DNA of 64,000 bases, from positions 121,879 to 185,878 of the forward strand of contig JAWCQE010000001.1 in the NCBI GenBank assembly GCA_038869895.1, given 5' to 3'. Made by a program: the position numbers and the translations under genes. The notes beneath the pieces are model-generated. The model did not search any database. It was not told the origin of the DNA and was given only the letters and a program-made list of their open reading frames with translations. This DNA is from Candidatus Pacearchaeota archaeon. GTDB taxonomy: Archaea; Nanobdellota; Nanobdellia; Pacearchaeales; GW2011-AR1. Numbering within the stretch: position 1 is the first letter of the stretch; every line of letters begins with the position of its first letter. This document shows, in pieces, positions 1-28,147 of this stretch.

Positions 1-330
1 CGAAGGGTTCTTTGGCAATTGAGTAATGGCATGAGAGCTGGAAGTGATATTAGTGTTGTTGTAAAAGAAGAGATAAAAAATCTTGGAGAGGAACAGGCAA
101 TACAGATACAAAGTTATGGAGGTAAATTAAATCCTTTGGTTATGTTTTTTATGATTATCGCAGTAATTCTTCCGACTCTGGGAACAACATTCTTAATAAT
201 AATTGCTTCAATTATTGGCATTTCCGGAAATATGGTGAAATTAATGTTTATATCAATATTCATTTTTATATTGTTTGTCCAAATAATGTTTCTTGGACTA
301 ATTAAATCTAGGAGGCCAAGCTTAATATGA
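1..330 (+). CDS. T2SS-F domain (TadB/TadC/FlaJ-like) pilus platform membrane protein, C-terminal fragment; the 5' end lies outside the window
   Basis: Frame 1 is open from nt 1 (RRVLWQLSNGMRAGSD...), so the Met at 19 is internal. A soluble loop is followed by two hydrophobic helices, as at the end of a T2SS-F repeat. The stop overlaps the next start (ATGA at 327-330). Confidence 0.55.
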   Translation, partial: RRVLWQLSNGMRAGSDISVVVKEEIKNLGEEQAIQIQSYGGKLNPLVMFFMIIAVILPTLGTTFLIIIASIIGISGNMVKLMFISIFIFILFVQIMFLGLIKSRRPSLI

Positions 331-1289
331 ATACTTTGAGATTTTATCCGGAATCTGTAAGGATAATTTACGAGAAAAATATAAAAAATTCTGGAATTAA
401 AATTTCTCCTGAAAAATTCCACAATAGGGTAATTTTAATTTCATTTTTAGCTATGGTTATTGCATCAACAATATTTTATTTTTTTAACATTAATATGTTT
501 TATTCAGTCATTATTTTTATATTACTAAATATTTTTTTCTATTTTAACATAAGTTTAAGAGCAAGCACAAGAATAAGGAAGATGGAGGAAGTTTTTCCTG
601 ACGTAATTTCTTTAACTGCAAGCAATTTGAGATCTGGGATTACTATTGATAGAGCATTTTTACTTTCCTCAAGGCCGGAATTTTCTCCTTTAGATGAAGA
701 GATTCTTAAAACTGGAAAAGATATAGCAACAGGAAAAGACATTTCATATTCTCTAAAAAAAATGAGTGAAAGAATAAATTCAGAAAAAATATCAAAAGTG
801 GTTACATTAATAACTTCTGGATTAAAATCTGGAGGGAATATTGCAGATTTGCTTGAACAGACTTCAAGTAATATGAAAGAAAAAGAATTTATAGAAAAAA
901 GAGTTGCCTCAAATATTTTAATGTACGTCATATTCATATTTTTTGCCATTGGTATTGGGGCACCAGTATTATTTGCGCTTAGTTCTGTCCTCGTTGATGT
1001 AATGCTTAATATAACTTCCAAAATTCCCGAGATACCATCCTCTCAACTTCAATTGCCTTTAACATTTAAACAAATTCCAGTTTCGCCAAATTTTGTTATG
1101 TATTTTGGTATACTTTTTATGTTAGTTACTGATTTAATATCAAGTCTTGTGATAGGATTTGTAAATAAAGGAGATGGAAAATCAGGACTTAAGTATTTTA
1201 TTCCACTTGTAACTTTTTCTTTATTAGTTTACTTTTTTGTTAAAAAAATAATCTCGAAATTTGTTATAGATTCTATCTCGGGAATCTAG
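327..1289 (+). CDS. T2SS-F domain (TadC/FlaJ-like) polytopic pilus platform membrane protein
   Basis: There are N-terminal TM helices. The cytoplasmic helical domain reads EEVFPDVISLTASNLRSGITIDRAF...ITSGLKSGGNIADLLEQTS, the typical GspF/T2SS-F signature, and is followed by C-terminal TM helices. The gene is translationally coupled to the upstream fragment. Confidence 0.65.
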   Translation: MNTLRFYPESVRIIYEKNIKNSGIKISPEKFHNRVILISFLAMVIASTIFYFFNINMFYSVIIFILLNIFFYFNISLRASTRIRKMEEVFPDVISLTASNLRSGITIDRAFLLSSRPEFSPLDEEILKTGKDIATGKDISYSLKKMSERINSEKISKVVTLITSGLKSGGNIADLLEQTSSNMKEKEFIEKRVASNILMYVIFIFFAIGIGAPVLFALSSVLVDVMLNITSKIPEIPSSQLQLPLTFKQIPVSPNFVMYFGILFMLVTDLISSLVIGFVNKGDGKSGLKYFIPLVTFSLLVYFFVKKIISKFVIDSISGI

Positions 1290-1341
1290 CTTTGTTTAAA
1301 AGGAGAGATATGTTTAAAAATGACTTTTATTTTAAATTAAT

Positions 1342-2127
1342 ATGAAATTAAGAAAAAAGAGAAGTAATTCTAAGGTAAAAATTGGTAAGAAATTAAATAA
1401 AAAAAAGCAAAGTGAAAAAAATAAAAAAATAGATGAAAAATTAAAGAGAGTGTCAAGTGGGATTAAAAAATTTGACAAAATGACTTCTGGAGGTTTTGAA
1501 GAGAATTCAACGAATCTTGTTATTGGAGGAGATGGAAGCGGGAAAACCATCTTTGCCATGAGTTTTTTAATAGAAGGGATAAAAAGAGGAGAAAATGTCC
1601 TATATATAAATTTTGAGGAATCAAAGGAAAATTTTTTTAGAAATATGTTAGGACTTGGATGGGATTTAAGCAAGTTTGAAAGTTCTGGGAGATTCACTTT
1701 TCTTGAATATTCTCCTGAAAAAATAAAAATGATGATTGATGAAGGTGGAGGGGTTGTTGAGGAGATAATATTAAAAAATAAAATAAAAAGACTCGTAATT
1801 GATAGCTTGACAAGTTTTTTGATTTTATTTCCTTCAAAGCAACTTAAAAGACAAGCTATTTCATCTTTGTTTAATCTTATAGAAAAATGGGATTGTACAA
1901 GCATTTTGACTTTGCAGGAATTTTCAGAAGAAATTAAGAACAAAAGAGATTCTGAAGCAGAAAGCCAGGCAGATAGTATAATTCTTCTCTATCTTATAAA
2001 GGTAAAAAATGAAAGAAAAAGATTTATTGAAGTCTTAAAGATGAGGGGAACAAGACATTCAACAGGAACTTATGAATTCAAAATTAAAAAAGGAATTGAA
2101 ATAGGAAATAAGAAAATAATAAAATAA
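1342..2127 (+). CDS. KaiC/RecA-superfamily single-domain ATPase (FlaH-like)
   Basis: It has a Walker A motif GGDGSGKT, then ...YINFEES..., a Walker-B-like RLVIDSL and ...LKMRGT.H.. near the C-terminus, which is the KaiC/RadA-like pattern. It also has a Lys-rich N-terminal extension. Confidence 0.65.
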   Translation: MKLRKKRSNSKVKIGKKLNKKKQSEKNKKIDEKLKRVSSGIKKFDKMTSGGFEENSTNLVIGGDGSGKTIFAMSFLIEGIKRGENVLYINFEESKENFFRNMLGLGWDLSKFESSGRFTFLEYSPEKIKMMIDEGGGVVEEIILKNKIKRLVIDSLTSFLILFPSKQLKRQAISSLFNLIEKWDCTSILTLQEFSEEIKNKRDSEAESQADSIILLYLIKVKNERKRFIEVLKMRGTRHSTGTYEFKIKKGIEIGNKKIIK

Positions 2128-2137
2128 TTAAACGTAA

Positions 2138-2569
2138 TTAAACTGCATCAACTAGGTTTCCAGTCGATGTTAAATTAAGGGCACTTCCTTGCTTTTTGTA
2201 TGTTATCTTTATGTCTCCTTGGAATTTTTGTCCTGCAGTTAGCGTGCATGGAACAGTAAATGTTGTTAAATTTCCATTATTTATGTCTTGTGGAAGAGTT
2301 GGACTTACAGTTCCTGTACATCCTGCAACAGTTATATCTGTTATAGACAATTGTTCTCCAGCTCCATGTATTAATTCTAATTGTATACCAGACGTTTCGG
2401 CAACCCCATTACATGAAAAAGGGGGGCTAAGACTACATCTATTTGGTACATAAGTTTTTGGATTGAAAACTCCAAAAAATGCAAGAGCTGCAATGACTAT
2501 AACTGCTGCTAAAATAGCCCAGCCATACGTCATCAAAAATTCCATCGCGGCCTGTCCTCTTTTTTTCAT
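2138..2569 (-). CDS. Archaeal type IV pilin-like protein (class III signal peptide)
   Basis: The N-terminus MKKRGQAAMEFLMTYGWAILAAVIVIAALAFFGVF has a basic stretch, an RG|Q processing context and about 20 hydrophobic residues. The rest is a small Thr/Gly/Cys-containing domain. Confidence 0.75.
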   Translation of the reverse strand: MKKRGQAAMEFLMTYGWAILAAVIVIAALAFFGVFNPKTYVPNRCSLSPPFSCNGVAETSGIQLELIHGAGEQLSITDITVAGCTGTVSPTLPQDINNGNLTTFTVPCTLTAGQKFQGDIKITYKKQGSALNLTSTGNLVDAV

Positions 2570-2826
2570 AAGTAACCTCCTTTGTATTAAGATAATAAAA
2601 TTATGTTAAATTCGTTTATAAACATTTCTGTTAGTTGACTCTTTTATTATTAGTTAGTAGAAGATAATAAAGAGAGAAACCTTTGTCTTTTTTATAAAAG
2701 TTAATAGTGTAAAAACTGCTAATTTTTTGAATTTTACTTTTTCAAATCTTTATTAATACTTTTATTCTTTCAAATTAATCTTTGATAGATTTTTTTAATT
2801 GACAATATCCTTTTGAAATTATTGTT

Positions 2827-3744
2827 TTAAGAGGCTGTTGCGTTGTAAATTTCTAAATGTCCTGAATCGAGCTTAAACCATGATGGCATTCCTTGTATTT
2901 GATGTGGTTGTGGATTGAGTGATGAAAAGTATATATAGTCGACGATAGATTTTTGCTTTACTTGAATCCCTTGATTTTCTAATTTTGGTAAATATACAAG
3001 AGATTCAATCCCATATTGGTTTGGAGTAATTTTTCCTTCTATTCTGTCAAGAAAACTCGGAGATAAATTCGAGGAGATATAATATGAATTTTTAGTATGT
3101 TCAATAAGTACCGAGGTATTGTTGCTTGGAAAGGCATCGTATATTGTTTTATTTATTTTATTTGAAATCTTTCCATTAGTATTTATAAAATATATTGGAT
3201 CTTCAAATCCTTCAATTGGGATTGTTGCAGTTATATTTTGGATTTTATTCCATCTTGCAAGATTAGATTTATCCTCCATAATAAAATTTGAAATGAAGGT
3301 GATTTTGACATTCCAAGGGTCACTTTGGTATACATAAATTGAAGAATTTGACATGTTAATTATAACATTAATTTTTCCAGCCTTCTCATTTATTGAGTCA
3401 ATTAAATCTCTATATCTTGCCCCAAGTAAGATGTCATTCTCTTCACCATTAACCGTTCCATTAAAAAAAGATTCATTAAAAAAATAATTTATGTCATTGA
3501 TGTAATTGCCAGATTTTATTATCTCATCTTCAGCAATGAAAATTATTCTAAATCCAGAAATAAAAATCTGTCTTTCAAGATTTAATTCAATAGAATTAAG
3601 AAAATTTTCCATTGTTGAGATTCTTGTCGCAGTTGAGTACCTTTGTTGAGATATTGAAAATACTTCAAATGTAATAAAAATAAGTATAATTAAAAATATT
3701 GCTATTAAAGTCATTACTTGTGCTTTTTTATTTTTTATTTTCAT
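2827..3744 (-). CDS. Prepilin-like (class III signal peptide) minor pilin candidate
   Basis: The N-terminus MKIKNKKAQVMTLIAIFLIILIFITFEVF has a KKA|Q context plus a hydrophobic helix. It is the last gene of a same-strand run of pilin-like genes. Confidence 0.5.
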   Translation of the reverse strand: MKIKNKKAQVMTLIAIFLIILIFITFEVFSISQQRYSTATRISTMENFLNSIELNLERQIFISGFRIIFIAEDEIIKSGNYINDINYFFNESFFNGTVNGEENDILLGARYRDLIDSINEKAGKINVIINMSNSSIYVYQSDPWNVKITFISNFIMEDKSNLARWNKIQNITATIPIEGFEDPIYFINTNGKISNKINKTIYDAFPSNNTSVLIEHTKNSYYISSNLSPSFLDRIEGKITPNQYGIESLVYLPKLENQGIQVKQKSIVDYIYFSSLNPQPHQIQGMPSWFKLDSGHLEIYNATAS

Positions 3745-3745
3745 T

Positions 3746-6208
3746 TTATCTCCAAACTCTTACTTGTACTTCTGTATCCCATGTGAAAGGTATGCCTTGT
3801 ATTTCCGAAGTGGTTAATGAAATGTCATTCTCTGTAAATTTAGTTTCAATTTTATTGTTTGAATTTAAATCAAGGTTTGTTAGAAGTCTATAAATTGCGA
3901 GATTTATTGCATCATTATTATTATATGCTATTGAATGAGAAGTATAGGAGCATTCATTTTGGCCAGAGTAGTTTGACGGAACTAATATTGTTGAATTCTC
4001 TCCATTTTCAAATTCAATATTCCATGCACATCCTTCGGCACTTGCTACTATTGGGGAGAATGATAACATTTTTTTGACTACTCTGTAAATTATTTTATTG
4101 TGTTCAGAACCCCCTGTTGAATTGTTTGGATTTAGCGCTGTTGATATTCTTATTTTATTTTCTCCGCTTAATATTTTTTCTGAAGGAATATTGACTGCAA
4201 ATGGATCTCCTAAAAATATATATGGAAGATTAAATTTTGACAAGTCGAAAATTTCTTCCCAGATACTTAAATTATAATTGTAAATTTGGACTTTATCTGT
4301 CCATTTTGAGCCAGAATATGAGATTGCAATAATTTCATATGGAGTTACATCTTCTGGAATAAATAATTCTCCTTCTGAAATTGTATTCCCGAACTCTTCA
4401 GTTTCGGCACTTATTATTAATCCATAAGGTGTTGAATCGCTATAATTTAGTTTAATGTATGAATCTGGATAGAGTGTTGATTTTATATTTTCAGAAATAA
4501 TTGTCTGCTCAAAATAAAGTGAATTTAGGATATCTTCCGCTATTTCAGAATATACAGATATTAATTCTTCAATATTTGAATGATAATAATTACCATTCCC
4601 ACATGATGCCATTGATTGAAGTGTTGTTTCATCCGCATTATCTCCAAAACCAACTGTATGTATTGTAATATTATGGTTATTGTATGCTTCACAAGCTGCT
4701 CTTATTGCATCTGCTGTAGCGCTGTTACTTCCAGGATAACATGTTCCTTGCATATTTCCGTCAGTCATTACAATCATAAATTTTTTTCTTGATTGCATTG
4801 ACTGAGCGACGAAACTTCCTGTGGCATTTATTACCCCACAACATACACAATTTCCAGCTTTTGTAGTCCATGAATTTATTGTATTATTTAATGAAATTAT
4901 GTTATTTGAAAGAGGATGATAATTGTTTGGATTTACTCCGCTGTTGTATCCAACTAAACCAACTCTATTTAAATCTAATTCTAAAACTATCTCTATAAGT
5001 CTTCTATTGGCATTTCTTGCTAAATCTATCATTTTTATTCCAAGAGAAGGAATATTACTATTCATGCTTGAGGATAAATCAGTCACTGAAAAAATATCCG
5101 CCCCTATATTTTGAGTTATTTGATAAGAAACATTTTCAAGTCCGAGCCTCAAAGGGATTGTTTTTCTGCTTAATTTTGAATAATCAAACATTTGTGTTAA
5201 ATTTGAATTTGGTATGATAATCTCAAAATCCCTCCCTCCGCTATTTCCATTATAAATTGTTATATTTCCAATTGTCATAAAAATATTTTGTGAACTATTG
5301 TAATGCAGAAAAATTTCCATTGATGTAAGATTTCCTAAAATGTAAAAGCTATCATAAATATTAATTAGTCCATCTATTCCCGGTAAATTTTTTTTTGATT
5401 CAAGTGTAGTAAGTTCTTCTTCATTATAAATTATCTTAACAAATCCCCCTCCGATGAATAAATTTCCGTTTTTCCCAACAAAAGTTAATTTATTTTTTTC
5501 GTTGTTAACTTGTGATAGATTTCCGAGTATGACGAATTTGTAAATTTCATTTGATTGAATATCGTGTTCTCCTACAAACTGGTTATTTATATATAAATAA
5601 AAGTCTTCAGAGAATATAGCTTCAACATATATACTCTCTATTTTACCATCACTTTCGAGAGTTATATTGCCATCACCAACATAACCCCCAAAATAAATAT
5701 ATTTTACTTTACTTGAAGATGATAAAAAGGCTCTTGAAGAATATCCTTTAACAGATTCTCCTTGTTTTATCCCAGATATTATTTGACGAGATGTCCAAAC
5801 ATCTTCTGCTTCTGATATTTCTTTTGATGAATTTTCTGCAATTAAAACATTACTAAAATAAATGGCTATATTATCATTTAAATTTATTTCATTTAAAATC
5901 TCTTGAGTCATAAGTGTTGCTTCAGGTTTTGACAACGCATAAAATTCTCCAATTTGTTCGAGAACTGATTGATTCAAATCTTTTATTTTTCCTTCAGAGA
6001 TTAATTGATTCACATAATCATTATCAATTTTTCCTATTTCAAGAGATGAAAGAGAATTTAATAAATCTTGTTGGACATATTTTTGTGTTATTTTTTGGTT
6101 GGTAGGAGGAGTTACACTTAGAATCACGATAATTATAATTATTAGGGCTATAAGTGCATCTAAACTAAAATAATATCCTTTCTTCCCATTTATAAGGTTA
6201 AATTTCAT
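3746..6208 (-). CDS. Large prepilin-like protein with von Willebrand factor A (vWA) domain; candidate pilus-associated adhesin
   Basis: The N-terminus KKGYYFSLDALIALIIIIIVILSV is pilin-like. Residues ~370-560 read ...IFSVTDLSSSM...VGLVGYNS...FMIVMTDGN...IHTVGFG, which gives a DxSxS...T...D MIDAS pattern and the alternating beta-strand hydrophobics of a vWA fold. Confidence 0.65.
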   Translation of the reverse strand: MKFNLINGKKGYYFSLDALIALIIIIIVILSVTPPTNQKITQKYVQQDLLNSLSSLEIGKIDNDYVNQLISEGKIKDLNQSVLEQIGEFYALSKPEATLMTQEILNEINLNDNIAIYFSNVLIAENSSKEISEAEDVWTSRQIISGIKQGESVKGYSSRAFLSSSSKVKYIYFGGYVGDGNITLESDGKIESIYVEAIFSEDFYLYINNQFVGEHDIQSNEIYKFVILGNLSQVNNEKNKLTFVGKNGNLFIGGGFVKIIYNEEELTTLESKKNLPGIDGLINIYDSFYILGNLTSMEIFLHYNSSQNIFMTIGNITIYNGNSGGRDFEIIIPNSNLTQMFDYSKLSRKTIPLRLGLENVSYQITQNIGADIFSVTDLSSSMNSNIPSLGIKMIDLARNANRRLIEIVLELDLNRVGLVGYNSGVNPNNYHPLSNNIISLNNTINSWTTKAGNCVCCGVINATGSFVAQSMQSRKKFMIVMTDGNMQGTCYPGSNSATADAIRAACEAYNNHNITIHTVGFGDNADETTLQSMASCGNGNYYHSNIEELISVYSEIAEDILNSLYFEQTIISENIKSTLYPDSYIKLNYSDSTPYGLIISAETEEFGNTISEGELFIPEDVTPYEIIAISYSGSKWTDKVQIYNYNLSIWEEIFDLSKFNLPYIFLGDPFAVNIPSEKILSGENKIRISTALNPNNSTGGSEHNKIIYRVVKKMLSFSPIVASAEGCAWNIEFENGENSTILVPSNYSGQNECSYTSHSIAYNNNDAINLAIYRLLTNLDLNSNNKIETKFTENDISLTTSEIQGIPFTWDTEVQVRVWR

Positions 6209-6672
6209 TTCCAGACATAAAGATTAAATTTAATTAGTTTATTTTTATAGACGCTGATTCTTTCTATTTTTATTAAATTCTCAATTTTGGTTGAATTTAT
6301 TCTTCCAATATATTCTTTTTGAGTTCCATTGATTTCAAGATTGTCTATTGTAAAATAGAAATCGTCTTTGACTCCAAGACGTCTCTTTAGTAATTCATAA
6401 TTTGAATTGTAGAAGTTTTCTAATTTAGTTTGATTTATTATATTATCTGATAGAATTCCGCTTTCATCATTATTTAATATCAATTCTGAAGCAGTTCTTC
6501 CTTGATTAAGTAAGTCGTCAAGTTGATTCCCTGCTTGATTTGCATAGTTGATTGTAAATATAAAAAGCATGATTATGCCAGATGTAAATATAATCATTGC
6601 AATAATTATATCCAGACTCCATGCCTGTGCTTTCTTTTTATTTCCTTTATTGATTAAGATAAACTTCACCAT
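6205..6672 (-). CDS. Prepilin-like protein
   Basis: The N-terminus ...KGNKKKAQAWSLDIIIAMIIFTSGIIMLFIF has a KKA|Q context plus a hydrophobic helix. It overlaps both neighbouring genes, giving an operon-like arrangement. Confidence 0.5.
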   Translation of the reverse strand: MVKFILINKGNKKKAQAWSLDIIIAMIIFTSGIIMLFIFTINYANQAGNQLDDLLNQGRTASELILNNDESGILSDNIINQTKLENFYNSNYELLKRRLGVKDDFYFTIDNLEINGTQKEYIGRINSTKIENLIKIERISVYKNKLIKFNLYVWK

Positions 6673-7036
6673 TTTCTTTCTTTATAATATTTTCTCCTTT
6701 TAGTATCTCTCCGTTTACAGGAACAATATTATAAAGAACTCCAGTATCTTCAGTATACACATATATGCTGTTGTTTACAATTTTTACTTCATAGTTTTTT
6801 CCAATTATAGTTTGAGGGAGATTAAATTTTCGGGAATAACCATTTGATGATTTTGATGCAAGAGCTATTTCCTCTCTGACATTAAGAGCTATATTTTGGA
6901 CAATTATGTTTTCTTTTTCTTTGTTCTTTTCATTTATATTTCCAGATATCACTCCAAGGAATAAAACAAAGAAGAAAAGTATAGCTCCAAAAATAACAAT
7001 GAATTCTATAATCCCTTGTCCTCTTTTATTTTTCAT
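6647..7036 (-). CDS. Prepilin-like protein (class III signal peptide)
   Basis: The N-terminus MKNKRGQGIIEFIVIFGAILFFFVLFLGV has an RG|Q context. It is the first gene of the minus-strand pilin run. Confidence 0.6.
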   Translation of the reverse strand: MKNKRGQGIIEFIVIFGAILFFFVLFLGVISGNINEKNKEKENIIVQNIALNVREEIALASKSSNGYSRKFNLPQTIIGKNYEVKIVNNSIYVYTEDTGVLYNIVPVNGEILKGENIIKKENGEVYLNQ

Positions 7037-7090: not shown

Positions 7091-8221
7091 TTACTTTAGT
7101 CCAAGATTAGCGAGAAGTTCTTCTTTTGAAAATTTTTCTAAATTTTTGTAATCTTGCCCTGTCCCTAGGAATAAGATTGGTTTTCCAGTTATATACCCTA
7201 TTGAGATTGCAGTTCCCCCTTTTTCATCTATGTCTGCTTTGGTTAAAATAGAACCATTAATTTCAAATAATTCATTGAATGATTTTGCCTGTTCAACAGC
7301 ATCATTACCTGTTATTGACTCAGCTATAAAAAGTTTTATATCAGGTTTGCAGACTCTTATTATCTTCTCCATCTCTTTCATTAGATTACTCTTAGTGTGC
7401 ATTCTTCCTGCAGTATCTATCATAACCACTTTTATCCCGTGTGATTTTGCATAAGAAATTGCGTCAAATGCAACTGCTGCTGGATCAGAACCATACTCAT
7501 GACTTATAACTTTAATCCCGAGGTTGTCACCATGCTTTTTTAGTTGTTCTATTGATGCTGCTCTGAAAGTATCTGAAGCTGCAAACACACACGAGATTTT
7601 GTGTTCATTGAGATAATATGCAAGTTTTGAAATAGTTGTTGTTTTGCCACTTCCGTTTATCCCAAAAAATAAAATAACAAAAGGGCCTTCTTTTTTCTCT
7701 CTTATTTTTTCAATAATATCAAATGGTTCTACAAGAATTCTTTTTATAGATTCTTTCAAAGAATTTTTGATTTCACTTTCAATTTCAGATTTTTTAATTT
7801 CAATATTCACAATATCCTTTTCCATATCTTCTTTTATTTTATCAACAACATTTAATGCTACATTATTCTCCAATAAAAGTGATTCCAATTCTTCAAAGAA
7901 TTCATCAAATATTTCCTTTGTTAAGCGCGATGTTGTAAATCTTCTTTTAATTCTTTCAAAAAATCCTTGTTCTTTTTCTAATTCAGGCTCTCCGATTTTT
8001 TCTTCAACTTGTTCTATTGAGTGTTCAAGTTTAATTGCGTTATCTTCTTTTAGTTTCTCTAAATCCTTTTTTTGTTTTTCAACACCTTCATATTTTTTTT
8101 CAGGTTCCTTTTCAATTTTTTCTTTTTTCTTGTCTTTTTCGTACTCTTCAGATTTTTCATCTTCTTTTTTTCCAAAGAATTTTGAAAGCTTTTCCTTTAA
8201 TGATTTGAACATTTTCTTCAA
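7091..8221 (-). CDS. ftsY: Signal recognition particle receptor FtsY
   Basis: The SRP-GTPase motifs GINGSGKTTT, DTAGR and TKAD.D.KGG are present. An acidic/Lys-rich N-terminal A-domain is also present. Confidence 0.9.
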   Translation of the reverse strand: MKKMFKSLKEKLSKFFGKKEDEKSEEYEKDKKKEKIEKEPEKKYEGVEKQKKDLEKLKEDNAIKLEHSIEQVEEKIGEPELEKEQGFFERIKRRFTTSRLTKEIFDEFFEELESLLLENNVALNVVDKIKEDMEKDIVNIEIKKSEIESEIKNSLKESIKRILVEPFDIIEKIREKKEGPFVILFFGINGSGKTTTISKLAYYLNEHKISCVFAASDTFRAASIEQLKKHGDNLGIKVISHEYGSDPAAVAFDAISYAKSHGIKVVMIDTAGRMHTKSNLMKEMEKIIRVCKPDIKLFIAESITGNDAVEQAKSFNELFEINGSILTKADIDEKGGTAISIGYITGKPILFLGTGQDYKNLEKFSKEELLANLGLK

Positions 8222-12968: not shown

Positions 12969-13155
12969 TATGAATATTAATAATAAAGAGATATTAGATT
13001 TTGTAAAAAGTAAAAAGATAGTTACAAGTTCAGAAGTTGCGAAAAAATTTAATATTTCATGGAATACTGCAGATAAATATCTTCTTGAACTCGCATTTAA
13101 TGATAAAATCGAAAGAATTAAAAAAGAAGGGGTGAATTTATGGATTTTAAAATAA
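12958..13155 (+). CDS. Small winged-helix DNA-binding protein (65 aa)
   Basis: ...ILDFVKSKKIVTSSEVAKKFNISWNTADKYLLELAFNDKIERIKKEGVNLWIL follows the HTH-plus-wing pattern of small archaeal wHTH regulators. The start is ambiguous (ATG at 12958 or 12970). Confidence 0.5.
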   Translation: MLNNMNINNKEILDFVKSKKIVTSSEVAKKFNISWNTADKYLLELAFNDKIERIKKEGVNLWILK

Positions 13156-13970
13156 AAAGTCAGATAAGTAAAAAATCAGCTTGCAAGAAAGGACAGGTGA
13201 CAATTTTTGTTATTATCTCTCTTCTTCTTGTTGTTGCAATAATCCTATTATTTATCCTTTACAAAAATCAGCAGATTCCTGGAGTAAGAGTCGAAAAAAC
13301 TTCTGGCGAGGAACTCGAGTCTTGTATTAAATCTTATCTTGAAGAAGCAGTCGATTTAATTTTTGAAAATTCTGGGTATATTGAACTGCCGGAATTAACT
13401 TATCAAATAAGAAATATTTATGGATATTACAAACAAGAAAATGAAAAGAAAATCCCTTATTTGTGTTATACTGCAATTAATTATGTAAGATGCATTCCGC
13501 AAGAGCCTTTTTTTGTAAACCATATAGAAGATGAAATAAAAAATTTCATAATTCCAAAAGTTGAGATATGTTTTGAGAATTTAAGGAATAGATTGCAAGA
13601 AAGAAATTATGAAACAATGTTTGGTATAACAAAAAATTTAGATGTTGAATTAAATGAAAGAGGAGTCCAAATTTATATTGAAAAAGAAATTTCGCAAACA
13701 AAAGCAGAGAAAGAAGAACGTTTTAGCGAATTTAAGTCTAATTATAAGACAAGATTGTATGATGTAGCAAAAATATCTGAAAAAATTATCACAGAGGAGG
13801 TTAAATTTTGCAATTCTGATTATGTTGAAGTGATGAGAAATAATAAATTAATTGAAATAACAAAATTTCAGACAGGAGATGATGTTAAAGTTTATTCTGT
13901 TAAGGATTTACCTTCAAAGAAAGAATTTAAATTTGCTGTAAGGAACTGTGTCCTTGCAACTCCATCTTAA
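13140..13970 (+). CDS. Prepilin-like protein, module A; paralog of 17934-18734
   Basis: The N-terminus ...SACKKGQVTIFVIISLLLVVAIILLFILY has a KG|Q context plus a hydrophobic helix. It appears to align end to end with the 17934 ORF, for example at ...PYLCYT..NY..C..Q and at the C-terminal F(K/N)FAVR. Confidence 0.55.
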   Translation: MDFKIKSQISKKSACKKGQVTIFVIISLLLVVAIILLFILYKNQQIPGVRVEKTSGEELESCIKSYLEEAVDLIFENSGYIELPELTYQIRNIYGYYKQENEKKIPYLCYTAINYVRCIPQEPFFVNHIEDEIKNFIIPKVEICFENLRNRLQERNYETMFGITKNLDVELNERGVQIYIEKEISQTKAEKEERFSEFKSNYKTRLYDVAKISEKIITEEVKFCNSDYVEVMRNNKLIEITKFQTGDDVKVYSVKDLPSKKEFKFAVRNCVLATPS

Positions 13971-13971
13971 A

Positions 13972-16900
13972 ATGAATAAAAAGTTTATCGCAGGAATTGA
14001 AATTTTTCTTGTCATAAGCATGGCTGTTTCATTTTCATGGATTCTAGGAAATATTTATGGGACTTCTCCAGATATAAAAAGTTTATTAGAATTTATAACA
14101 ATAATTCCAAGTGTTTCTGCCCAAACAACTACATCATGTTGTCTTAATTTGAAAAGCGGAGCCAGTTGTACTGACATTCCATCTGATTCATGTTCTGATA
14201 TTTGTGATGGAAATTGTGTTTCAGGGACAACATGTTCTCAACTAAGGGAATGCAATCTTGGATGTGGATTTAATTCTGATGAAGGAACATGCACTCCAAA
14301 TACTCCAAGGGTACTATGTGAAGGAGATGAGGGCTGTGAATTTCTTGATGACCCTTTTTGCAACAATCAAAAATGTGAAATTGGATGTTGTGTTCTTGGA
14401 TTGAGTGCGAATTTGGAGACGAGAACTGGATGTGAAATACAATCTTTAAGAAGAGGAGTATCATTTGAATTTGACAGTTCAATAAAAGATGGCGTTCAAT
14501 GTTTGAATAAGGGTAAAACAAGTGAGGGAGCTTGTGTTGTAAATTTTGGAGAAGAAAAAAATAACTGCATTTTTACAACACAAAGTGAGTGTGTCAACAA
14601 TATAAAAGGAGTTTTTTATGAAGGCTATCTTTGTTCTCATCCAGAACTTAAAACAATATGTGTGAAGCAGTCAAGAGTAAGTTGTTTTGACAATAGGGAT
14701 GAGGTATATTGGTATGATTCATGTGGGAATAGAGAAAATATTTATTCATCAAATAGGGCAAGTTCATGGAATAATGGATTCGTCTTATCGAAAGAGAAAT
14801 CATGCAATCCTAATTCTTCAAATGAAAATTCAGGAAGCTGTGGAAATTGTAATTATAATCTTGGAAGTATATGCGGAGAGTTTAGGCCTGGAGTTGATTC
14901 TGGAAATATGGAAGGTTATACTTGTAGAAATTTAAACTGCATTGATTCAAAAGGAAAACAAAGAACAAACGGAGAATCATGGTGTGTTTATGATGGAACT
15001 ATAGGCGGAGGAAGTATACTTGAAGGGAAGAGTGGGGGATTATTATCAAAAATAGCTGGAGGATTATTGGAGGGAGAGGTTGCATTATTAAGCACTGATT
15101 TAGTAGGGAGCAGACATTTTAGGCAGGTATGTGTTAATGGAAAAGTAGAGGTAGAACCATGCGCTGATTATAGGAAGGAGATATGTGTCCAGAATGATAA
15201 ATCCCTTGATAATGGAAGAAAGATTGATAATGCAATATGTAGGATGAATTTATGGGAACAATGTATTTCATACAATCAAGGAAATGAGGGATGTGGGCCA
15301 GGATGTTTAACCAAATGTGTGAAAAATCCAGATTGTAGGATTCATCCTGTTTTTGTTGACTCTCGTTTTAAATTTAATGCTTGTGTCCCAAAATATCCTC
15401 CTGGATTTGATTTAGGAAGTACAAGCGGAGTAGATAGTTTTGTAAGAAATTATGTATCAAGTTCTATTAGTGATTTGGATGGAGGTGGGGTTCTTTCAAA
15501 ATTATCAGGAAGTTTAAGTTCTGAGAATTCTGCAGGAAGCATTTGTTCTTTAGCATCGCAAAAATGCACTAGTATATGGACTAAGACATGCGGACTATCA
15601 GGAATTCATTGGGAATGCACGAAAAACTGCAAATGCCATACTGAATCTTTTACAATTCAGATGAATAATCTTTGTGTTTCTCTTGGAGATTGTGGAGTTT
15701 ATGCAAATTATGAAGGAAAGGTTACTCCTGGTGGAGCTTATGTAACAAAGAAAGGAGGACATGGAAGGACCCCTCTACAACCATTTATTTTGATTCCAGT
15801 TTATGCTGTTTTAGTTAAAATATTAAAACCAACTCCTCCAAGTGGTGGATTTTTTCGAGATGAGAAAGACATAGTGAATTTTCCAACTGAAATTATTGAT
15901 CCATTCTTAGGAGGGTATAATAGAATAGATGTAGGGAAACTGCCAAGTCAGTTGGATAATATGCTTGGAAGCCAGTTAGGAACAACTATCGGAGCAGGAG
16001 TTGCTGGAGGACTTGTAGGAGGGGTAGTTGCAGGACTAGGAGGAGTTACAGCTGCAGGTCTTGGAGTTATTGGGGCTGCTACACAAGGAATATTATGGGC
16101 ACCAATTATTTTTCCAACAGGGGGGGTGGGTATGTTACAAATACCAGTTACTTTTTATGCTCCCACTAACAATATCCTTTCAACTGTATTTCACGGACAT
16201 TATTTAGGTAAACCATTTTTCGGATTTGATCCTTTATCAATTGCAATTGGAATCGCAGTTGGAATCGCGATTACTTATCTTATTGGATGTGGAAAAGTTA
16301 AGACAGTTGATATCAAATTTCAGTGTTTACCTTGGCAAAGGCCAAAAGGCGGGACTGATTGTGAGAAATGTGATGATGACCCTTTGAAACCATGTTCAAG
16401 GTATAGGTGTGAATCTCTTGGAGCAAGATGCACTTTGATAAATGAAGGAAAAGGAGATGTATGCGTAAGTGTTTCTGGGGAAAGTTCTATACCAGTAATT
16501 AGTCCATGGGAAGAGATACTCAATACCTCTTTTTATAGGTATGAAGACATAAGTCCTAATGGATTTAAAATAAGAACAAAAGATGGACAGTGTATACAGG
16601 CATTTACTTATTTAGTTTTTGGAGTTGAAACAGATGTTTATTCGGAGTGTTTCTGGAGTTTAGAACCATTTGCATATGAAAATAAATCAGAGGCAAATTT
16701 ATTTTTAGAAGGAAATCTTTTAACTAAAAATCATACAATGCTAACTTTATTGCCAAGTGTTGAAAGTTTATTGGCTAATGAAATTAATAACCAAGAAGAA
16801 TTGGGACAGGCATTGGAAACAACAACAGAACAGGACATCAGCGCCAGGCAATACATATTAAATCGATTAGGAGATTTAAATATCTATGTAAAATGCGCAA

Positions 16901-17898
16901 ACCTTGATGGAAAAGCCAACGACCAGGATTATAAAATAAACTTCTGTGTGTCTCCTGGGCCAGATATACAAGAACCGGTAATAATTGCGTCTTCTCCTCC
17001 GCAGAACAACTTCACAAAATTTGATGCAACAGAACAAGAAGCTTTCTTTTTTATTTCAGAACCAGCTGAATGTAGATGGGATAGTACGAGGCAAGTTATA
17101 TCAAATGAATTAGAATCATATAATTCATTGAGAAATGAAATGGAATGTAGTGTTGATTTAGATGAAAGTACAATACTTGGATGGCCGTGCAATGCAACTC
17201 TTCCAATAACAGGCGAGGAAAATAGATTTTTTATTCAATGTCGAGACCAGCCGTGGCTTGGAAATAATAACTCAAGAAACATAGGAGACATTTTTGAATA
17301 TTCGTTAAAAAGAAGTAATTCTGAATTAAAAATAACTTCTATTAAACCTAATGAAAAAGTCTTTGCAGGAAGTGAACCTATTATGATTGAATTGGAAGTT
17401 GAGACATCAGGAGGAGTTGAAAATGGAAACGCTTTCTGCAAATATAGTTTTGACAATAATCAATTTGTAAATTTCAGAATTACAGGCGAGAAAGTTCATA
17501 GCCAAATTCTAAATCAGATGAGAAAAGGAGATTATAAAGTTTATATTCAGTGTAATGATTTTGCAGGAAATGTTGCAGAAGGCATTGGGGAGTTCTCATT
17601 AGAACTTGATACTAAAGCCCCTGTTATAACAAGAGTTTTTAGTAATGCTAACACTTTATTCATTACAACAGATGAAGAGGCAAAGTGTTTTTATAAGAAT
17701 GAATCTGATGTAGGATGTAATTTTCCGTTAAATAATGTTACTGAATTTAATATTACTGAATTTACAAAGAATGGAAATATTCACTCAACTCCTTTAATAA
17801 AAGGAAAGAGTTACTATATAAAATGCGAAGATATTTGGAGCAATAGAGCTGAGAGTTGTTCTATTGTTGTAAGGAGTTTTGAAAATTTTGCAAGTTAA
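13972..17898 (+). CDS. Giant Cys-rich envelope protein (fused form): signal peptide, Cys-rich ectodomain, Gly-rich TM region, Cys-knot-like segment and four beta-sandwich-like repeats
   Basis: The ORF-track frame is 13948-17898. I prefer the ATG at 13972, directly after the upstream stop, which gives MNKKFIAGIEIFLVISMAVSF. The predicted cleavage is VSA|QTTTSCC. Its halves are homologous to the 618-aa and 694-aa ORFs downstream. No family was recognised. Confidence 0.7.
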   Translation: MNKKFIAGIEIFLVISMAVSFSWILGNIYGTSPDIKSLLEFITIIPSVSAQTTTSCCLNLKSGASCTDIPSDSCSDICDGNCVSGTTCSQLRECNLGCGFNSDEGTCTPNTPRVLCEGDEGCEFLDDPFCNNQKCEIGCCVLGLSANLETRTGCEIQSLRRGVSFEFDSSIKDGVQCLNKGKTSEGACVVNFGEEKNNCIFTTQSECVNNIKGVFYEGYLCSHPELKTICVKQSRVSCFDNRDEVYWYDSCGNRENIYSSNRASSWNNGFVLSKEKSCNPNSSNENSGSCGNCNYNLGSICGEFRPGVDSGNMEGYTCRNLNCIDSKGKQRTNGESWCVYDGTIGGGSILEGKSGGLLSKIAGGLLEGEVALLSTDLVGSRHFRQVCVNGKVEVEPCADYRKEICVQNDKSLDNGRKIDNAICRMNLWEQCISYNQGNEGCGPGCLTKCVKNPDCRIHPVFVDSRFKFNACVPKYPPGFDLGSTSGVDSFVRNYVSSSISDLDGGGVLSKLSGSLSSENSAGSICSLASQKCTSIWTKTCGLSGIHWECTKNCKCHTESFTIQMNNLCVSLGDCGVYANYEGKVTPGGAYVTKKGGHGRTPLQPFILIPVYAVLVKILKPTPPSGGFFRDEKDIVNFPTEIIDPFLGGYNRIDVGKLPSQLDNMLGSQLGTTIGAGVAGGLVGGVVAGLGGVTAAGLGVIGAATQGILWAPIIFPTGGVGMLQIPVTFYAPTNNILSTVFHGHYLGKPFFGFDPLSIAIGIAVGIAITYLIGCGKVKTVDIKFQCLPWQRPKGGTDCEKCDDDPLKPCSRYRCESLGARCTLINEGKGDVCVSVSGESSIPVISPWEEILNTSFYRYEDISPNGFKIRTKDGQCIQAFTYLVFGVETDVYSECFWSLEPFAYENKSEANLFLEGNLLTKNHTMLTLLPSVESLLANEINNQEELGQALETTTEQDISARQYILNRLGDLNIYVKCANLDGKANDQDYKINFCVSPGPDIQEPVIIASSPPQNNFTKFDATEQEAFFFISEPAECRWDSTRQVISNELESYNSLRNEMECSVDLDESTILGWPCNATLPITGEENRFFIQCRDQPWLGNNNSRNIGDIFEYSLKRSNSELKITSIKPNEKVFAGSEPIMIELEVETSGGVENGNAFCKYSFDNNQFVNFRITGEKVHSQILNQMRKGDYKVYIQCNDFAGNVAEGIGEFSLELDTKAPVITRVFSNANTLFITTDEEAKCFYKNESDVGCNFPLNNVTEFNITEFTKNGNIHSTPLIKGKSYYIKCEDIWSNRAESCSIVVRSFENFAS

Positions 17899-17933
17899 AT
17901 TTATAAAGAAATTTGTTTTTAGAAGGTAATAGA

Positions 17934-18734
17934 ATGATTAAATCAAAAAACAAAAGAGGACAGACAACAATCTTTGTTATCTTAGCAGTAGTTATTGTTG
18001 CAGTCATAGTGATTTTTTTTGCAGTTACGGATATAGGGAGAGAAACTTTTGAAAAAATCTCTAATATTGTTGGCAGTGATGAGATTAATGTTAAAGAAGA
18101 ATTGAATAAATGTTTTATTGATAACAGCGAAATCAATAAAAAAATAAATCTAATTATGTCACAGGGAGGAAGTATTGAACCTTCTTTATTTTTTCTTCAT
18201 AATGGAACGAAATTAAGTTATTTATGTTATACTAATGAATTTTATAAGACATGTGTAAATCAGCAGCCTTTAATATTACAACATACAAAGAATGAGATAA
18301 ATAGGGCAATTCTTCCAGAAATAGATAAATGTATTTCTTCATTAAAAGCCAATTTTGAAAAAAGAGGATATCAAATAAGAGGACAGAATTTCGAGAGTTC
18401 AATAGATATAATTCACAACAACATAATTATTAAAATAAATTTCCCTCTAACTATCAAAAAGGGGGATTTAACACAGACATTTGAAAATTTTGAAATAAAA
18501 AAACATAGCCAGTATTATCAATTATTAAGTGTTGCAACATCAATTGTAAATTTTGAATCCCAATATGGCGATAGTGATCCAGTTTTATATATGTCTCTTT
18601 ATCCGAATACAAGAGTTGAAAAATTAAAACAAGGAGATGGGACAACAATTTATAAGATTAGTGATAGGGAAACAATGGAAACTTTTAACTTTGCTGTAAG
18701 AAGTTTGGCTTTGCCTATAGGATATGGATTATAA
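17934..18734 (+). CDS. Prepilin-like protein, module B; paralog of 13140-13970
   Basis: The N-terminus is MIKSKNKRGQTTIFVILAVVIVAVIVIFFAV, with an RG|Q context. The ATG at 17934 is preceded by GAAGGT. The ORF-track start at 17913 is a TTG. Confidence 0.55.
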   Translation: MIKSKNKRGQTTIFVILAVVIVAVIVIFFAVTDIGRETFEKISNIVGSDEINVKEELNKCFIDNSEINKKINLIMSQGGSIEPSLFFLHNGTKLSYLCYTNEFYKTCVNQQPLILQHTKNEINRAILPEIDKCISSLKANFEKRGYQIRGQNFESSIDIIHNNIIIKINFPLTIKKGDLTQTFENFEIKKHSQYYQLLSVATSIVNFESQYGDSDPVLYMSLYPNTRVEKLKQGDGTTIYKISDRETMETFNFAVRSLALPIGYGL

Positions 18735-18750
18735 ATTCAAATAGTTAAAA

Positions 18751-20607
18751 ATGGTGATTGAAAAAAAAGAAGAAAAATTGAAGAGAAAATTTACAAGTAA
18801 TTACTTTTTAGGTTTTAGTCTGTTTATTTTTTTTATTTTATTTTTTTCATCTTATGTCACGGCGCAGACAACGACAGTATGCTGTGAAAAAACTTTAAAT
18901 GGAGCTTACTGCCAGAATTCCATTCAAAGCCAGTGTGATTCAAGATTTTTAAGTTCACAAACAAGCTGTGATGCGACTTCTTTCTGTCAATTAGGAGTTT
19001 GTTATGATAGTGATGATGGATTATGTATGAATAATGTTCCTCAAAGGGCATGTGAAGAAGCAAACGGATTGTGGACAAGTGATGCAAATCCTCCCCAATG
19101 CAATTTAGGATGTTGTATTCTTGGGCAGCAGGCTTCTTTTACAACTCTTCAAAGATGTAAGAAATTATCTGGAACTTACGGACTTCAAGTGGATTTCAGA
19201 ACAGACATCAAAGACGAAGTTTCTTGTATTGCAGTTGCAAATGCACAAGACATTGGAGCTTGTGTTTTTGAGTCAGAATTTACAAGAACCTGTAAATTTG
19301 TTACAAGAGCTGAATGTGGCACTTCAATGAACTCAACAAATTCAGGAGTAGTTCCTAATACGCAATTTTTCAAGGATTTTTTATGTACTTCAGAACAGCT
19401 TAATACAAACTGCCAGAGAACCTCAAAAACTTCTTGTTTTGAAGGAGAGGATGAAGTTTATTTTATTGATAGCTGTGGGAATAAGGCTAATATTTATGAT
19501 GCTTCAAGAATAAATGATAAAAATTATTGGGAAAAAAGAGTTCCTAAAAGTCAGAGCTGCACTGCCTCTAGGAATTCTAGAAGTTGTGGAAACTGCGATT
19601 ATCTTGAAGGAAGTATTTGTTCTAAAGCTAAAGATTCTGGTGTTAAGCCAGCTTATGGCGAATTTATCTGTAGGGATATAAATTGTTATAGTACTTCAAA
19701 TGGAAAAAATTACAAAAATGGGGAGTCATGGTGTTTTTACGACAATAATAATAAAGGGGATGATAGGGTTGGAAGTAGACATTTTAGGCATATTTGTTTT
19801 ATGGGAGAGGAAATTGTAGAACCATGCGCTGATTATAGGCAAGAAACATGCATTGAAGATTCGATAAATGTTGAGGGCGGTGGAACTTTTCTACAAGCAG
19901 GATGTGTTGTGAATAGGTGGCATGATTGTTTGTTGCAGAAAAGAATTGAAGATTGCCAAAATACTGATTTAAGAGATTGTAAATGGATTCCGGTTTCTGA
20001 AGAACCTGAAGAGATAGCAAAAGGGATAATTGATGCATCTTTAAATAAAATTACAAATGGATTTTCTGGATTATTAATGAATGTTATTGAAAAAGATGAA
20101 AGAGATAAAGGGGCTTGTGTTCCAGATATTGCTCCAGGACTTGAATTTTGGGGGGAGTCGGCGGCATCTCAGTGTGACTTAGTAAGTTCAAGTTGTGTTA
20201 TAACTTATGAAAAGACGTTAATTGGAGGAAAAAAGTGTGTTAAGAATTGCTTTTGTGATATAAAAGAAAACCCACAAACAGCAATTCAGGCATTGAATAT
20301 ATGTTCCTCTATAGGAGACTGCGGACCAGGAGCAAATTATATAGGAAAATTTGTTAATAATGGTTATGAACTAAGAATAGATGACAAAAAAATAGGTCCT
20401 GAACTTAATTTAGGAATTTTTACTGCTTCTCCTGTTCAAAGTGGAAGTCCTGCAAATCCCTCTACAAATCCCTCTTTTGAACAAAGAAGAGAATTTTCAA
20501 CAGCAACACAACAGACATTTCAAACTCAAACCTCAACTGCAACTTCAACAACAGGAAATATTATCAAAGATATAATAACTGAAACATATAAACAACTTGG
20601 AAAATAA
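18751..20607 (+). CDS. Cys-rich secreted protein, homolog of the N-terminal half of the 13972-17898 protein
   Basis: The signal peptide ends ...YVTA|QTTTVCC. It shares the motifs GCCILG, CGNCDY, NGESWCFYD and VGSRHFRHICFMGEEIVEPCADYRQETC. It has a T/Q/S-rich low-complexity C-terminus. Confidence 0.7.
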   Translation: MVIEKKEEKLKRKFTSNYFLGFSLFIFFILFFSSYVTAQTTTVCCEKTLNGAYCQNSIQSQCDSRFLSSQTSCDATSFCQLGVCYDSDDGLCMNNVPQRACEEANGLWTSDANPPQCNLGCCILGQQASFTTLQRCKKLSGTYGLQVDFRTDIKDEVSCIAVANAQDIGACVFESEFTRTCKFVTRAECGTSMNSTNSGVVPNTQFFKDFLCTSEQLNTNCQRTSKTSCFEGEDEVYFIDSCGNKANIYDASRINDKNYWEKRVPKSQSCTASRNSRSCGNCDYLEGSICSKAKDSGVKPAYGEFICRDINCYSTSNGKNYKNGESWCFYDNNNKGDDRVGSRHFRHICFMGEEIVEPCADYRQETCIEDSINVEGGGTFLQAGCVVNRWHDCLLQKRIEDCQNTDLRDCKWIPVSEEPEEIAKGIIDASLNKITNGFSGLLMNVIEKDERDKGACVPDIAPGLEFWGESAASQCDLVSSSCVITYEKTLIGGKKCVKNCFCDIKENPQTAIQALNICSSIGDCGPGANYIGKFVNNGYELRIDDKKIGPELNLGIFTASPVQSGSPANPSTNPSFEQRREFSTATQQTFQTQTSTATSTTGNIIKDIITETYKQLGK

Positions 20608-22692: not shown

Positions 22693-22848
22693 GATTAAAA
22701 GTCCATATTATAAAGAGAAATCTGATGAAGTCAAGTTTTGTTTGTTATAATTTATAATTGAACGAAGTTCCTTCTTATACGAACTAATTAAGTGGCAATA
22801 TTATAAAAAATATATAAAGGATTACAATATTTTCATTTGTGAGAATAA

Positions 22849-23541: not shown

Positions 23542-23838
23542 TTTTTTATTTAAAATTAAGAGTTTAAATATTTTTCCTTTTGATGTGGTTTGTAAAGTAA
23601 ATCCTTAAATCAAGTTACTTTTTTTACAAAGGGTAATTATTTTACGAAACTTATTCAGATGAATTGTAAATGAATCTTCAAATTTGATTTTATTTATAGG
23701 GCAATATCGATATCTTACAAATAGCAAGATTAGATAAGGTATTTTTATCAATATTAAATTTATTTATATATTATAGAAATTACAAATTTTACTATTTATT
23801 TTATACTTTTAAGTATAATTAATTATTATAAATAGAAT

Positions 23839-24969: not shown

Positions 24970-25159
24970 CTTTTTTTAAAAATTTTTTAGTATAAATAAA
25001 TATTGGAATTGATAAAATGGTGCAATCAATAATTTTTTTAAATGCCCCTAATTTTTTTATAAATTAATCTATGAAATTTGATATGCAGGCTTAAATCTAA
25101 TATTTAATGATATATAAGATAAAAAGGTTTAATAATATGATTTTATTTTAGAATAATTA

Positions 25160-25648: not shown

Positions 25649-25649
25649 A

Positions 25650-27609: not shown

Positions 27610-27661
27610 TTCATTAAACTTGAAATGTTGCTGGAACTCTAAGAAACCCGCTGGAGGTTTG

Positions 27662-28015: not shown

Positions 28016-28084
28016 TTTTTTTGCCTTGTATTTCCATTTTTATTTTCTTTGGCTAAATTTTTTCACCAATAAATTTAATTATTT

Positions 28085-28111
28085 TATATATGGTTTTCTT
28101 TGCCATATATA
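28085..28111. promoter_or_regulatory. Palindromic operator candidate 1: TATATATGG-N9-CCATATATA
   Basis: Read directly from the sequence. The 9-bp perfect inverted arms lie at 28085-28093 and 28103-28111. The site is about 70 bp upstream of the HTH regulator start. Confidence 0.5.
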
Positions 28112-28147
28112 TTTAATTTCTTTATAAATTAAATTATTATTTTATTA

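Follow-up and report, generated by a model that had tools for sequence, protein, structure and literature searches.

Several type IV filament systems described from archaea come close to the locus considered here. Makarova et al. recorded archaeal type IV pilus loci with two tadC-like genes (clade 1 and many clade 2 loci), the linkage of KaiC-family ATPases to type IV pili, and nanoarchaeal members of clade 2, whose loci are linked to KaiC-family ATPases and to large adhesin-like proteins (PMC4858521). Denise et al. described the split platform as a gene fission common to the Epd and Tad systems, and an Epd-like archaeal system is the presumed ancestor of Tad (PMC6668835). A 2026 preprint counts DPANN archaea among the carriers of "System 1" and reports two platform genes in some DPANN 4A loci (10.64898/2026.04.22.720090). 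Given these prior reports of split platforms, KaiC linkage and DPANN carriers, the kind of system is already known; a description of the DPANN-wide module presented below was not found in the searchable literature. Here, we analyse a 64-kb window (64,000 nucleotides, G+C ~28%) of a Candidatus Pacearchaeota archaeon (assembly GCA_038869895.1, contig JAWCQE010000001.1, positions 121,879 to 185,878 of the forward strand, read 5' to 3'). Positions 1-7036 are probably the larger part of an 11-gene, non-archaellar type IV pilus module with a likely role in attachment. The parts that distinguish it are a giant prepilin carrying a vWA domain, a KaiC-like partner and a membrane winged-helix protein, and also four minor and two small E+5 pilins without curated families.

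The original prediction, made from the window's letters and open reading frames (ORFs), had listed the genes in 1-7036 with coordinates that all proved correct, and had presumed that a secretion ATPase lay just upstream of nucleotide 1. An exact match of the 320-residue second platform protein led us to contig JAWCSC010000008.1 of GCA_038868955.1 (L001), the last 1420 nt of which are 100% identical to positions 1-1420 of the window. The window could thus be extended by 9.7 kb upstream, so that 73.7 kb of sequence around the locus was examined (64-kb window plus 9.7 kb of L001). The ATPase was found there, ending 1 nt before the first platform gene. The genes of the module are as follows, a slash marking the predicted prepilin cleavage site:

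L001 6350-6757, strand opposite to the ATPase and membrane-protein genes: pil135, sixth prepilin, 135 residues, N-terminus MRKGG/QAGIEYLIIIGF

L001 6820-7458: membrane protein of 212 residues with a C-terminal winged-helix-like domain, upstream of the ATPase

L001 7745-9124: T2SSE/VirB11-family ATPase core, 459 residues, Pfam T2SSE 115.3 bits

L001 9126-10004: T2SSF1, full gene, 292 residues, Pfam T2SSF 56.9 bits

1..330, plus strand: 3' part of T2SSF1 (last 109 codons), its reading frame already open at base 1, where the window cuts it

327..1289, plus strand: T2SSF2, 320 residues, Pfam T2SSF 58.9 bits

1342..2127, plus strand: KaiC-like ATPase, 261 residues, single-domain, with a Lys-rich N-terminal tail, Pfam KaiC 183.4 bits

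2138..2569, minus strand: pil143, major pilin candidate, 143 residues, MKKRG/QAAMEFLMTYGWAILAA

2570..2826, minus strand: 257-nt spacer 5' of pil143, with GGAGGT and a TTTATAAA box

2827..3744, minus strand: pil305, prepilin-like, 305 residues, KKA/QVMTLIAIFL

3746..6208, minus strand: vWA820, giant prepilin-like adhesin candidate, 820 residues, GKKG/YYFSLDALIALI

6205..6672, minus strand: pil155, prepilin-like minor pilin candidate, 155 residues, KKKA/QAWSLDIIIAMII

6647..7036, minus strand: pil129, prepilin-like minor pilin candidate, 129 residues, MKNKRG/QGIIEFIVIFGA

These genes recur together across the DPANN archaea. When one genome per GTDB species was scanned, vWA820 proved to have at least 113 relatives. 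The 78 loci retained for analysis represent at least five DPANN lineages: Pacearchaeota, Woesearchaeota, Nanoarchaeia/Nanoarchaeota, Aenigmatarchaeota and Nanohalarchaeota. The ORFs of all loci were searched with the window's proteins, and 32 non-redundant loci with at least 20 kb of context formed a full-context set. The ATPase, both T2SSF proteins, vWA820, pil305, pil129 and pil135 are all present in 28 of the 32, the KaiC-like protein additionally in 22 of those 28, and all 11 families in 21 of the 32. The pil305 gene occurs in 77/83 loci, always just after the vWA gene, and pil155 directly before it in 67/83. The commonest arrangement places KaiC-T2SSF2-T2SSF1-ATPase-(membrane winged helix-turn-helix protein) on one strand and pil135-pil129-pil155-vWA-pil305-pil143 on the divergent strand. 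In the present genome the block from pil129 to pil143 is inverted, convergent to the KaiC-like gene, with pil135 left upstream; this order is shared by none of the 78 related loci. The KaiC-like and pil143 genes are consequently convergent with stop codons only 10 nt apart (2128-2137), a junction peculiar to the rearranged order.

Three statements of the original prediction need amendment. Five prepilin-like genes do lie within positions 1-7036, but the locus has six families, the sixth (pil135) being upstream of base 1. The four-gene pilin run overlaps at two junctions (4 nt and 26 nt), but the third is a 1-nt gap. Finally, pil143, described as stand-alone, has its own spacer here, but in relatives its position at the end of the pilin block is conserved. 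Two further genes were seen around related loci. In 19 of them, a gene within the module or close to it encodes a membrane protein of ~210 residues that has Cys residues and a Gly-rich stretch (e.g. L046 14353-14985, L005 8413-9045 and L006 8251-8880; in L005 and L006 between pil135 and pil129), and a MinD-like ATPase lies near 5 of the 78. Neither has a homologue in the window or L001.

As judged from sequence, the platform is made of two single-domain halves in colinear order, N-half then C-half. The assignment of two separate T2SSF proteins holds in a hidden Markov model search, in which the scores listed above stand against a Pfam cutoff of 25.2 bits; the truncated ORF at 1-330, taken by itself, reaches 20.4 bits and falls under it. 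On the NCBIfam models T2SSF1 aligns with the N-terminal half of UpsF (positions 29-246 of 484) and T2SSF2 with the C-terminal half of ArlJ/FlaJ (positions 269-553 of 555). The two are distant paralogues (hhalign probability 98.8%, 17% identity) and are neighbours in 56-57 related loci; in the window the T2SSF2 start overlaps the T2SSF1 stop by 4 nt (ATGA). A PDB sequence search returned no meaningful match for either protein. The long T2SSF2 ORFs of some loci were considered as fused two-domain platforms and rejected, each containing only one T2SSF2 domain.

The ATPase retains intact Walker A, Asp box, Walker B and His box motifs, read from its sequence. Its PDB matches place Archaeoglobus fulgidus GspE (2OAP, 243 bits) ahead of FlaI (190 bits) and CpaF (165 bits). 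It lies below every NCBIfam cutoff: FlaI, the best NCBIfam match, at 291.6 versus 550 bits, TadA at 172 versus 373, and BasE at 144.9 versus 1000. Pfam PilB3_C is matched by 28 of 45 orthologues, giving the family a PilB3-like C-terminal domain, and this together with 2OAP as best PDB match provides indirect hints of a clade 2 affinity. It is not the only such ATPase in the genome. A second, longer T2SSE ATPase (746 residues, cut by the locus edge) lies within L001 1-2604, ~7.1-9.7 kb upstream of the window, where it adjoins a 759-residue surface protein with fn3 and double LamG/pentraxin-like domains; the genome therefore encodes at least two type IV filament ATPases.

The KaiC-like protein was correctly called as such, its score on PF06745 (183.4 bits) comparing with a cutoff of 26.6. 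Its sequence reads Walker A GGDGSGKT, a catalytic EE pair in INFEES and Walker B RLVIDS. It has one domain, without the CI+CII duplication of the clock KaiC, and its best PDB matches are KaiC CI domains, PH0186, PH0284 and SSO2452. A known parallel is ArlH/FlaH, the KaiC-like partner of the archaellum ATPase, likewise a single-domain RecA/KaiC-like ATPase whose gene shares an operon with those of a type IV filament ATPase and its platform; autophosphorylation controls the binding of ArlH to ArlI (10.1101/2021.03.19.436134). Unlike ArlH, the protein encoded here is much nearer the KaiC CI domains and carries the Lys-rich N-terminal tail; the ArlH model scores 57.6 bits versus a cutoff of 215, and FlaH structures are not among its PDB matches. 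Its gene directly follows T2SSF2 in 22 of the 32 full-context loci, and it is likely a regulator or partner of the pilus ATPase. The 212-residue membrane protein gives scattered weak winged-helix matches (HTH_11, MarR, DeoR; Lrs14 19.9 bits) and no PDB match. It was considered as a seventh pilin and rejected, as it has no conserved class III motif.

The N-termini of the minus-strand proteins had been put forward as prepilin peptidase substrates. All five pass a class III test (a regular expression for a basic residue, then G/A, then ~20 hydrophobic residues, combined with hydrophobicity), each with a basic stretch, [KR][GA] and a hydrophobic helix. The motifs are kept in 57-83 orthologues per family, drawn from the 78 related loci, which is far beyond chance:

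pil143: [KR]G/QAAMEFLMTYGWAILAA, with Q+1 and E+5 in 57/57 orthologues

pil129: [KR][AGS]/Q..IEF, with Q+1 and E+5 in 63/66

pil135: [KR][GAS]/Q.S.EY, with Q+1/E+5 in 61/64

pil155: [KR][AGS]/QAWG.D, with Q+1 and D+6 in 67/67

vWA820: [KR][GA]/[YIVF]FFS.D, with D+6 in 79/83

pil305: [KR][GAS]/[QIMV].FT, a class III-like motif in 75/78

An acidic residue at +5 or +6 is missing from pil305 alone. In Methanococcus, the EppA-processed DUF361 pilins are marked by a signal peptide with a terminal glycine, then Gln+1 and Glu+5, a signature not found in the pilins of Sulfolobus and Haloferax (PMC3875500). A short class III ORF was not present in the locus. Among the smaller families, pil129 scores 26.3 bits on Pfam DUF7266, slightly below the cutoff of 27.6; of the 73 members of the combined pil129 and pil135 set, 18 match DUF7266 and 18 match Class_IIIsignal PF04021 (E <= 0.01), a model on which the window's own proteins reach 11-13 bits versus a cutoff of 23.7.

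The combined evidence of motif, family, model, and spacer with ribosome-binding site leads us to regard pil143 as the major subunit, and the products of the four-gene run as minor pilins. Residues 6-22 are invariant among 73 aligned homologues, and the family has 4192 matches, many of them labelled "UPF0333 family" by the Joint Genome Institute (JGI). The AlphaFold2 model (predicted local distance difference test, pLDDT, 90.7) shows a helix at 3-31 and an eight-strand beta-sandwich, i.e. a lollipop fold, and it finds its best, though weak, PDB fold matches in two pilins of archaea (8Q30 and 8FK7), namely the Aap pilin of S. acidocaldarius and that of P. calidifontis. In the 5' spacer a GGAGGT Shine-Dalgarno sequence stands 7 nt before the ATG and a TTTATAAA box ~45 nt upstream, both read from the sequence; the box may serve as the pil143 promoter.

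The most striking member of the run is vWA820. The vWA domain of the 820-residue protein was there as predicted (Pfam VWA 44 bits, residues 371-544), and it places a complete metal ion-dependent adhesion site (MIDAS; DxSxS...T...D) on a protein with a pilin-type N-terminus. More than 350 family members align along the entire protein at 40-73% identity, with D377, S379, S381 and D483 invariant and T453 at least 90% conserved. The model (pLDDT 88, predicted template modelling score 0.70) consists of a hydrophobic helix at 16-32, a helical domain at 45-108, a beta-rich domain at 113-332, the vWA domain at ~370-565 and then C-terminal beta-rich domains. In structure vWA820 comes closest to pilus-tip adhesins and to PilB of S. 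sanguinis (7B7P, 7BA2), a bimodular minor pilin with a grafted vWA module. Compared with PilB, vWA820 is twice the size and has its vWA domain set between a helical and several beta-rich domains, and sequence identity is ~15%; convergent recruitment of one and the same module is the simplest reading of the likeness. Many relatives have a LamG (Laminin_G_3) module of ~270 residues within the vWA domain, inserted near residue 470, with the MIDAS kept, which fits the expectation for a variable binding surface. Such relatives include P0115, L006 10001-13366 and others of more than 1000 residues, and Pfam misses their split vWA. Replacement of the vWA domain by LamG in these longer relatives was considered and rejected, the insertion lying within a retained domain.

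How, then, does the module compare with the described systems? The original prediction had called it Tad/Epd-like, which stands in part: the split platform and the prepilin signature (G, cleavage, Q...E at +5) match Epd (PMC6668835, PMC3875500), but the ATPase is nearest A. fulgidus GspE and PilB3-like, and pil143 has 143 residues and a beta-sandwich. With Epd of Methanococcus maripaludis (System 1, clade 1) the module shares two tandem platform genes with one T2SSF domain each, several prepilins with a G/A-ending signal, Gln+1 and Glu+5 (the DUF361/UPF0333 signature), and multiple minor pilins alongside a large adhesin-like class III protein. It differs from Epd, whose major pilin has ~70 residues and is without a globular domain, in the beta-sandwich head of pil143, and in the PilB3-like C-terminal domain of its ATPase family. 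Neither EppA nor a FleN/MinD gene is present in the window or L001, and a KaiC-like ATPase and a membrane winged-helix protein are found instead.

With clade 2 or System 2 (the Haloferax volcanii PilB3-PilC3 and PilB4 loci, A. fulgidus GspE) it shares the ATPase, by its 2OAP match and PilB3_C-type C-terminus, and the resemblance of pil129 to DUF7266. Unlike System 2, whose platforms are single genes according to the 2026 census (10.64898/2026.04.22.720090), its platform is split; three of its families have a Glu+5, which Haloferax pilins do not (PMC3875500), and its pilin set is without a Pfam or NCBIfam family. The Tad/Flp system (TadA/CpaF, TadB, TadC, TadG) is similar in having a platform of two single-domain proteins and one ATPase in the locus, no PilT-like paralogue being seen here, and it includes a vWA-containing pseudopilin, TadG (PMC4858521). 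However, TadB resembles the C-half and TadC the N-half (PMC6668835), whereas here the N-half precedes the C-half. Flp-type short pilin, TadV, TadZ, secretin and TadD are missing from the locus (Flp, TadV, TadZ and secretin domains from every scanned ORF of the window and L001, as is EppA), and CpaF scores below the archaeal ATPases. The TadA score (172 versus 373 bits) led us to reject a Tad assignment. The module thus mixes Epd-like traits (split platform, Q+1/E+5) with System-2-like ones (PilB3-type ATPase, KaiC partner, large adhesin), a mixture that bears on the origin of the Epd/Tad lineage.

Gene content, domain assignments, signal motifs, predicted folds and conservation were computed here, and from them we infer processing, assembly order, tip location, regulatory roles and biological role. 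The six prepilins (pil135, pil129, pil155, vWA820, pil305 and pil143) would insert into the membrane, where a prepilin peptidase encoded elsewhere would cut after [KR][GAS], exposing Gln+1 and the acidic residue at +5 or +6. A hexameric VirB11/PilB-family ATPase would dock on a heterodimeric platform of the two single-T2SSF-domain proteins, corresponding to the N- and C-halves of FlaJ/UpsF-type proteins, and drive pilins from the membrane into the filament. The presumably co-transcribed pil129-pil155-vWA820-pil305 may prime assembly and end at the tip, which would present a metal-dependent (MIDAS) vWA adhesin, and pil143, with its invariant N-terminal helix, own spacer and strong ribosome-binding site, would form the shaft. 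The KaiC-like ATPase and the membrane winged-helix-like protein could modulate or scaffold the motor. By analogy, the likely role is attachment to a host cell or surface.

Several observations weigh against this picture. The model of pil143 matches the folds of solved archaeal pilins weakly (E ~4e-3, template modelling score 0.3-0.4), and Pfam and NCBIfam hold no family for pil155 or pil305, a result that a scan of 73 orthologues did not change. An A24-family prepilin peptidase was found neither in the 64-kb window, nor in the 9.7 kb of L001, nor among the conserved neighbours of the 78 loci; clustering of 1218 neighbouring ORFs from related loci likewise gave no conserved prepilin peptidase. 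The only GxGD aspartyl protease in the window, a 322-residue protein (54905-55873, minus strand; YD...GGGD...PAMP motifs, Pfam SPP 54 bits), was a candidate for the missing peptidase but was rejected, being a presenilin/SPP homologue. The tip location and adhesion role are drawn by analogy, and the pilus of the present organism is a prediction from its genes. Finally, at L001 7727-7729, ~1.95 kb before the first base of the window, the ATPase gene has an in-frame TAA in place of the Gln codon found in relatives (GEITDQKS in L003, GEIID-stop-KS here), which divides the gene into a conserved 109-codon N-terminal ORF and the 459-residue core. This could reflect a split gene, a pseudogene or an assembly error, and the motor may be split or inactive in the present genome.

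The stop codon, together with a gene order that differs from that of all 78 related loci through the inverted pilin block, raises the alternative that the locus is decaying and non-functional in this genome. We regard this as unlikely. Every other gene is intact and full length, the N-terminal ATPase fragment is still well conserved, and the 459-residue core covers FlaI-aligned positions 114-517 with all motifs kept. In addition, an ATG occurs 5 codons after the stop, so that two polypeptides could be made, and the TAA itself was seen in a single assembly (GCA_038868955.1).

Equally improbable, in our view, is that the genes build a short pseudopilus, similar to a bindosome or a type II secretion system, which displays vWA820 and other class III proteins or secretes, rather than a long filament. 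The ATPase does match the model of the bindosome ATPase BasE, and the 2026 census proposes that archaeal type IV machineries widely display class III binding proteins (10.64898/2026.04.22.720090); many more class III-like proteins are in fact encoded beside an S-layer gene at 13140-31115. However, the BasE score is far under its cutoff, and this second class III cluster is unlinked to ATPase genes in a relative. Moreover, several features mark pil143 as a typical polymerising major pilin, namely its N-terminus of 17 invariant residues with E+5, the thousands of members in its family, its own spacer and a strong Shine-Dalgarno sequence.

A true filament might also have DNA uptake (natural transformation) or the scavenging of nutrients as its main task, instead of adhesion. 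Type IV-like pilus genes were reportedly among those required for transformation of M. maripaludis. A transposon screen in that species looked for transformation genes (PMC10133366), and competence and pilin-like genes have been reported together in ultra-small genomes (PMC9938205). Against this, neither a ComEC-like nor a DprA-like gene was seen in the locus or scanned ORFs, and the most conserved accessory of the module is a MIDAS vWA protein of the pilus-tip adhesin kind. We therefore see little chance that uptake is the main function, although the two roles are not mutually exclusive. An archaellum locus for motility is hardly credible and, as the original prediction held, can be set aside: FlaI is the best NCBIfam match of the ATPase and T2SSF2 aligns with ArlJ, but the FlaI, ArlJ (30.3 versus 550 bits) and ArlH scores are all far under their cutoffs, the platform is split over two genes, and the pilin-like proteins match no archaellin, ArlF/G or ArlC/D/E/X model. 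A non-archaellar pilus with a likely role in attachment is the reading we prefer.

Other features of the window deserve brief mention. The module is bordered by FtsY (7091-8221, minus strand), which adjoins pil129. The second conserved cluster (13140-27609 and 28461-31115, both plus strand; no Pfam or NCBIfam family) encodes small class III-like proteins of 276, 273, 162, 316, 174 and 166 residues, with N-termini such as KKG/QVTIFVI, KRG/QTTIFVI and MKRG/QFQLGFGMIF. Between these genes lie those of giant Cys-rich proteins (1316, 618 and 694 residues), the first of which looks like a fusion of the other two, and an S-layer-like gene follows. The order is repeated in a relative (L086, an 857-kb contig), and the 694-residue Cys-rich family has more than 450 members in Pacearchaeota and Nanoarchaeota. 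Amid this cluster, a minus-strand pair at 22849-24969, encoding a CBM96 carbohydrate-binding protein (230 residues) and a Schlafen/AlbA_2-domain membrane protein (376 residues), has no counterpart in the gene list of L086 and looks like an insertion. At 32680-34897 (minus strand) a pacearchaeosortase (179 residues, 202 bits versus a cutoff of 80) adjoins a PACE-CTERM protein, its putative S-layer substrate (545 residues, 377 bits versus a cutoff of 110), and the pair is an independent Pacearchaeota marker. A full-length archaeal 23S rRNA gene stands isolated at 37181-40015 (minus strand); 16S or 5S rRNA genes did not exceed the threshold anywhere in the 64-kb window, and the rRNA genes thus appear unlinked.

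What might such a pilus mean for these archaea? A groundwater study stated that type IV pilus components are missing from DPANN and used pili to tell cells of the Candidate Phyla Radiation (CPR) apart (10.1101/2020.05.14.094862). The locus described here argues against that statement, and pili on ultra-small cells cannot serve as a CPR marker. Abundant and uncultured, the ultra-small Pacearchaeota and Woesearchaeota are thought to lead a life attached to other cells. A module that is nearly intact over at least five DPANN lineages provides a concrete candidate for the contact apparatus; among its accessory proteins the best conserved is the MIDAS vWA prepilin, which bears insertions specific to certain lineages. 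We suggest, tentatively, that the module may serve the Pacearchaeota/Woesearchaeota branch, as well as some Aenigmatarchaeota and Nanohalarchaeota, as the main organelle for attachment to a host, with vWA820 at the tip setting which host or surface is bound; the binding surface would then be the MIDAS vWA domain, LamG-inserted in some lineages. If true, this possibility would contradict the use of pili to discriminate CPR from DPANN cells in cryo-electron microscopy images, and would offer a sequence handle for the prediction of host range.

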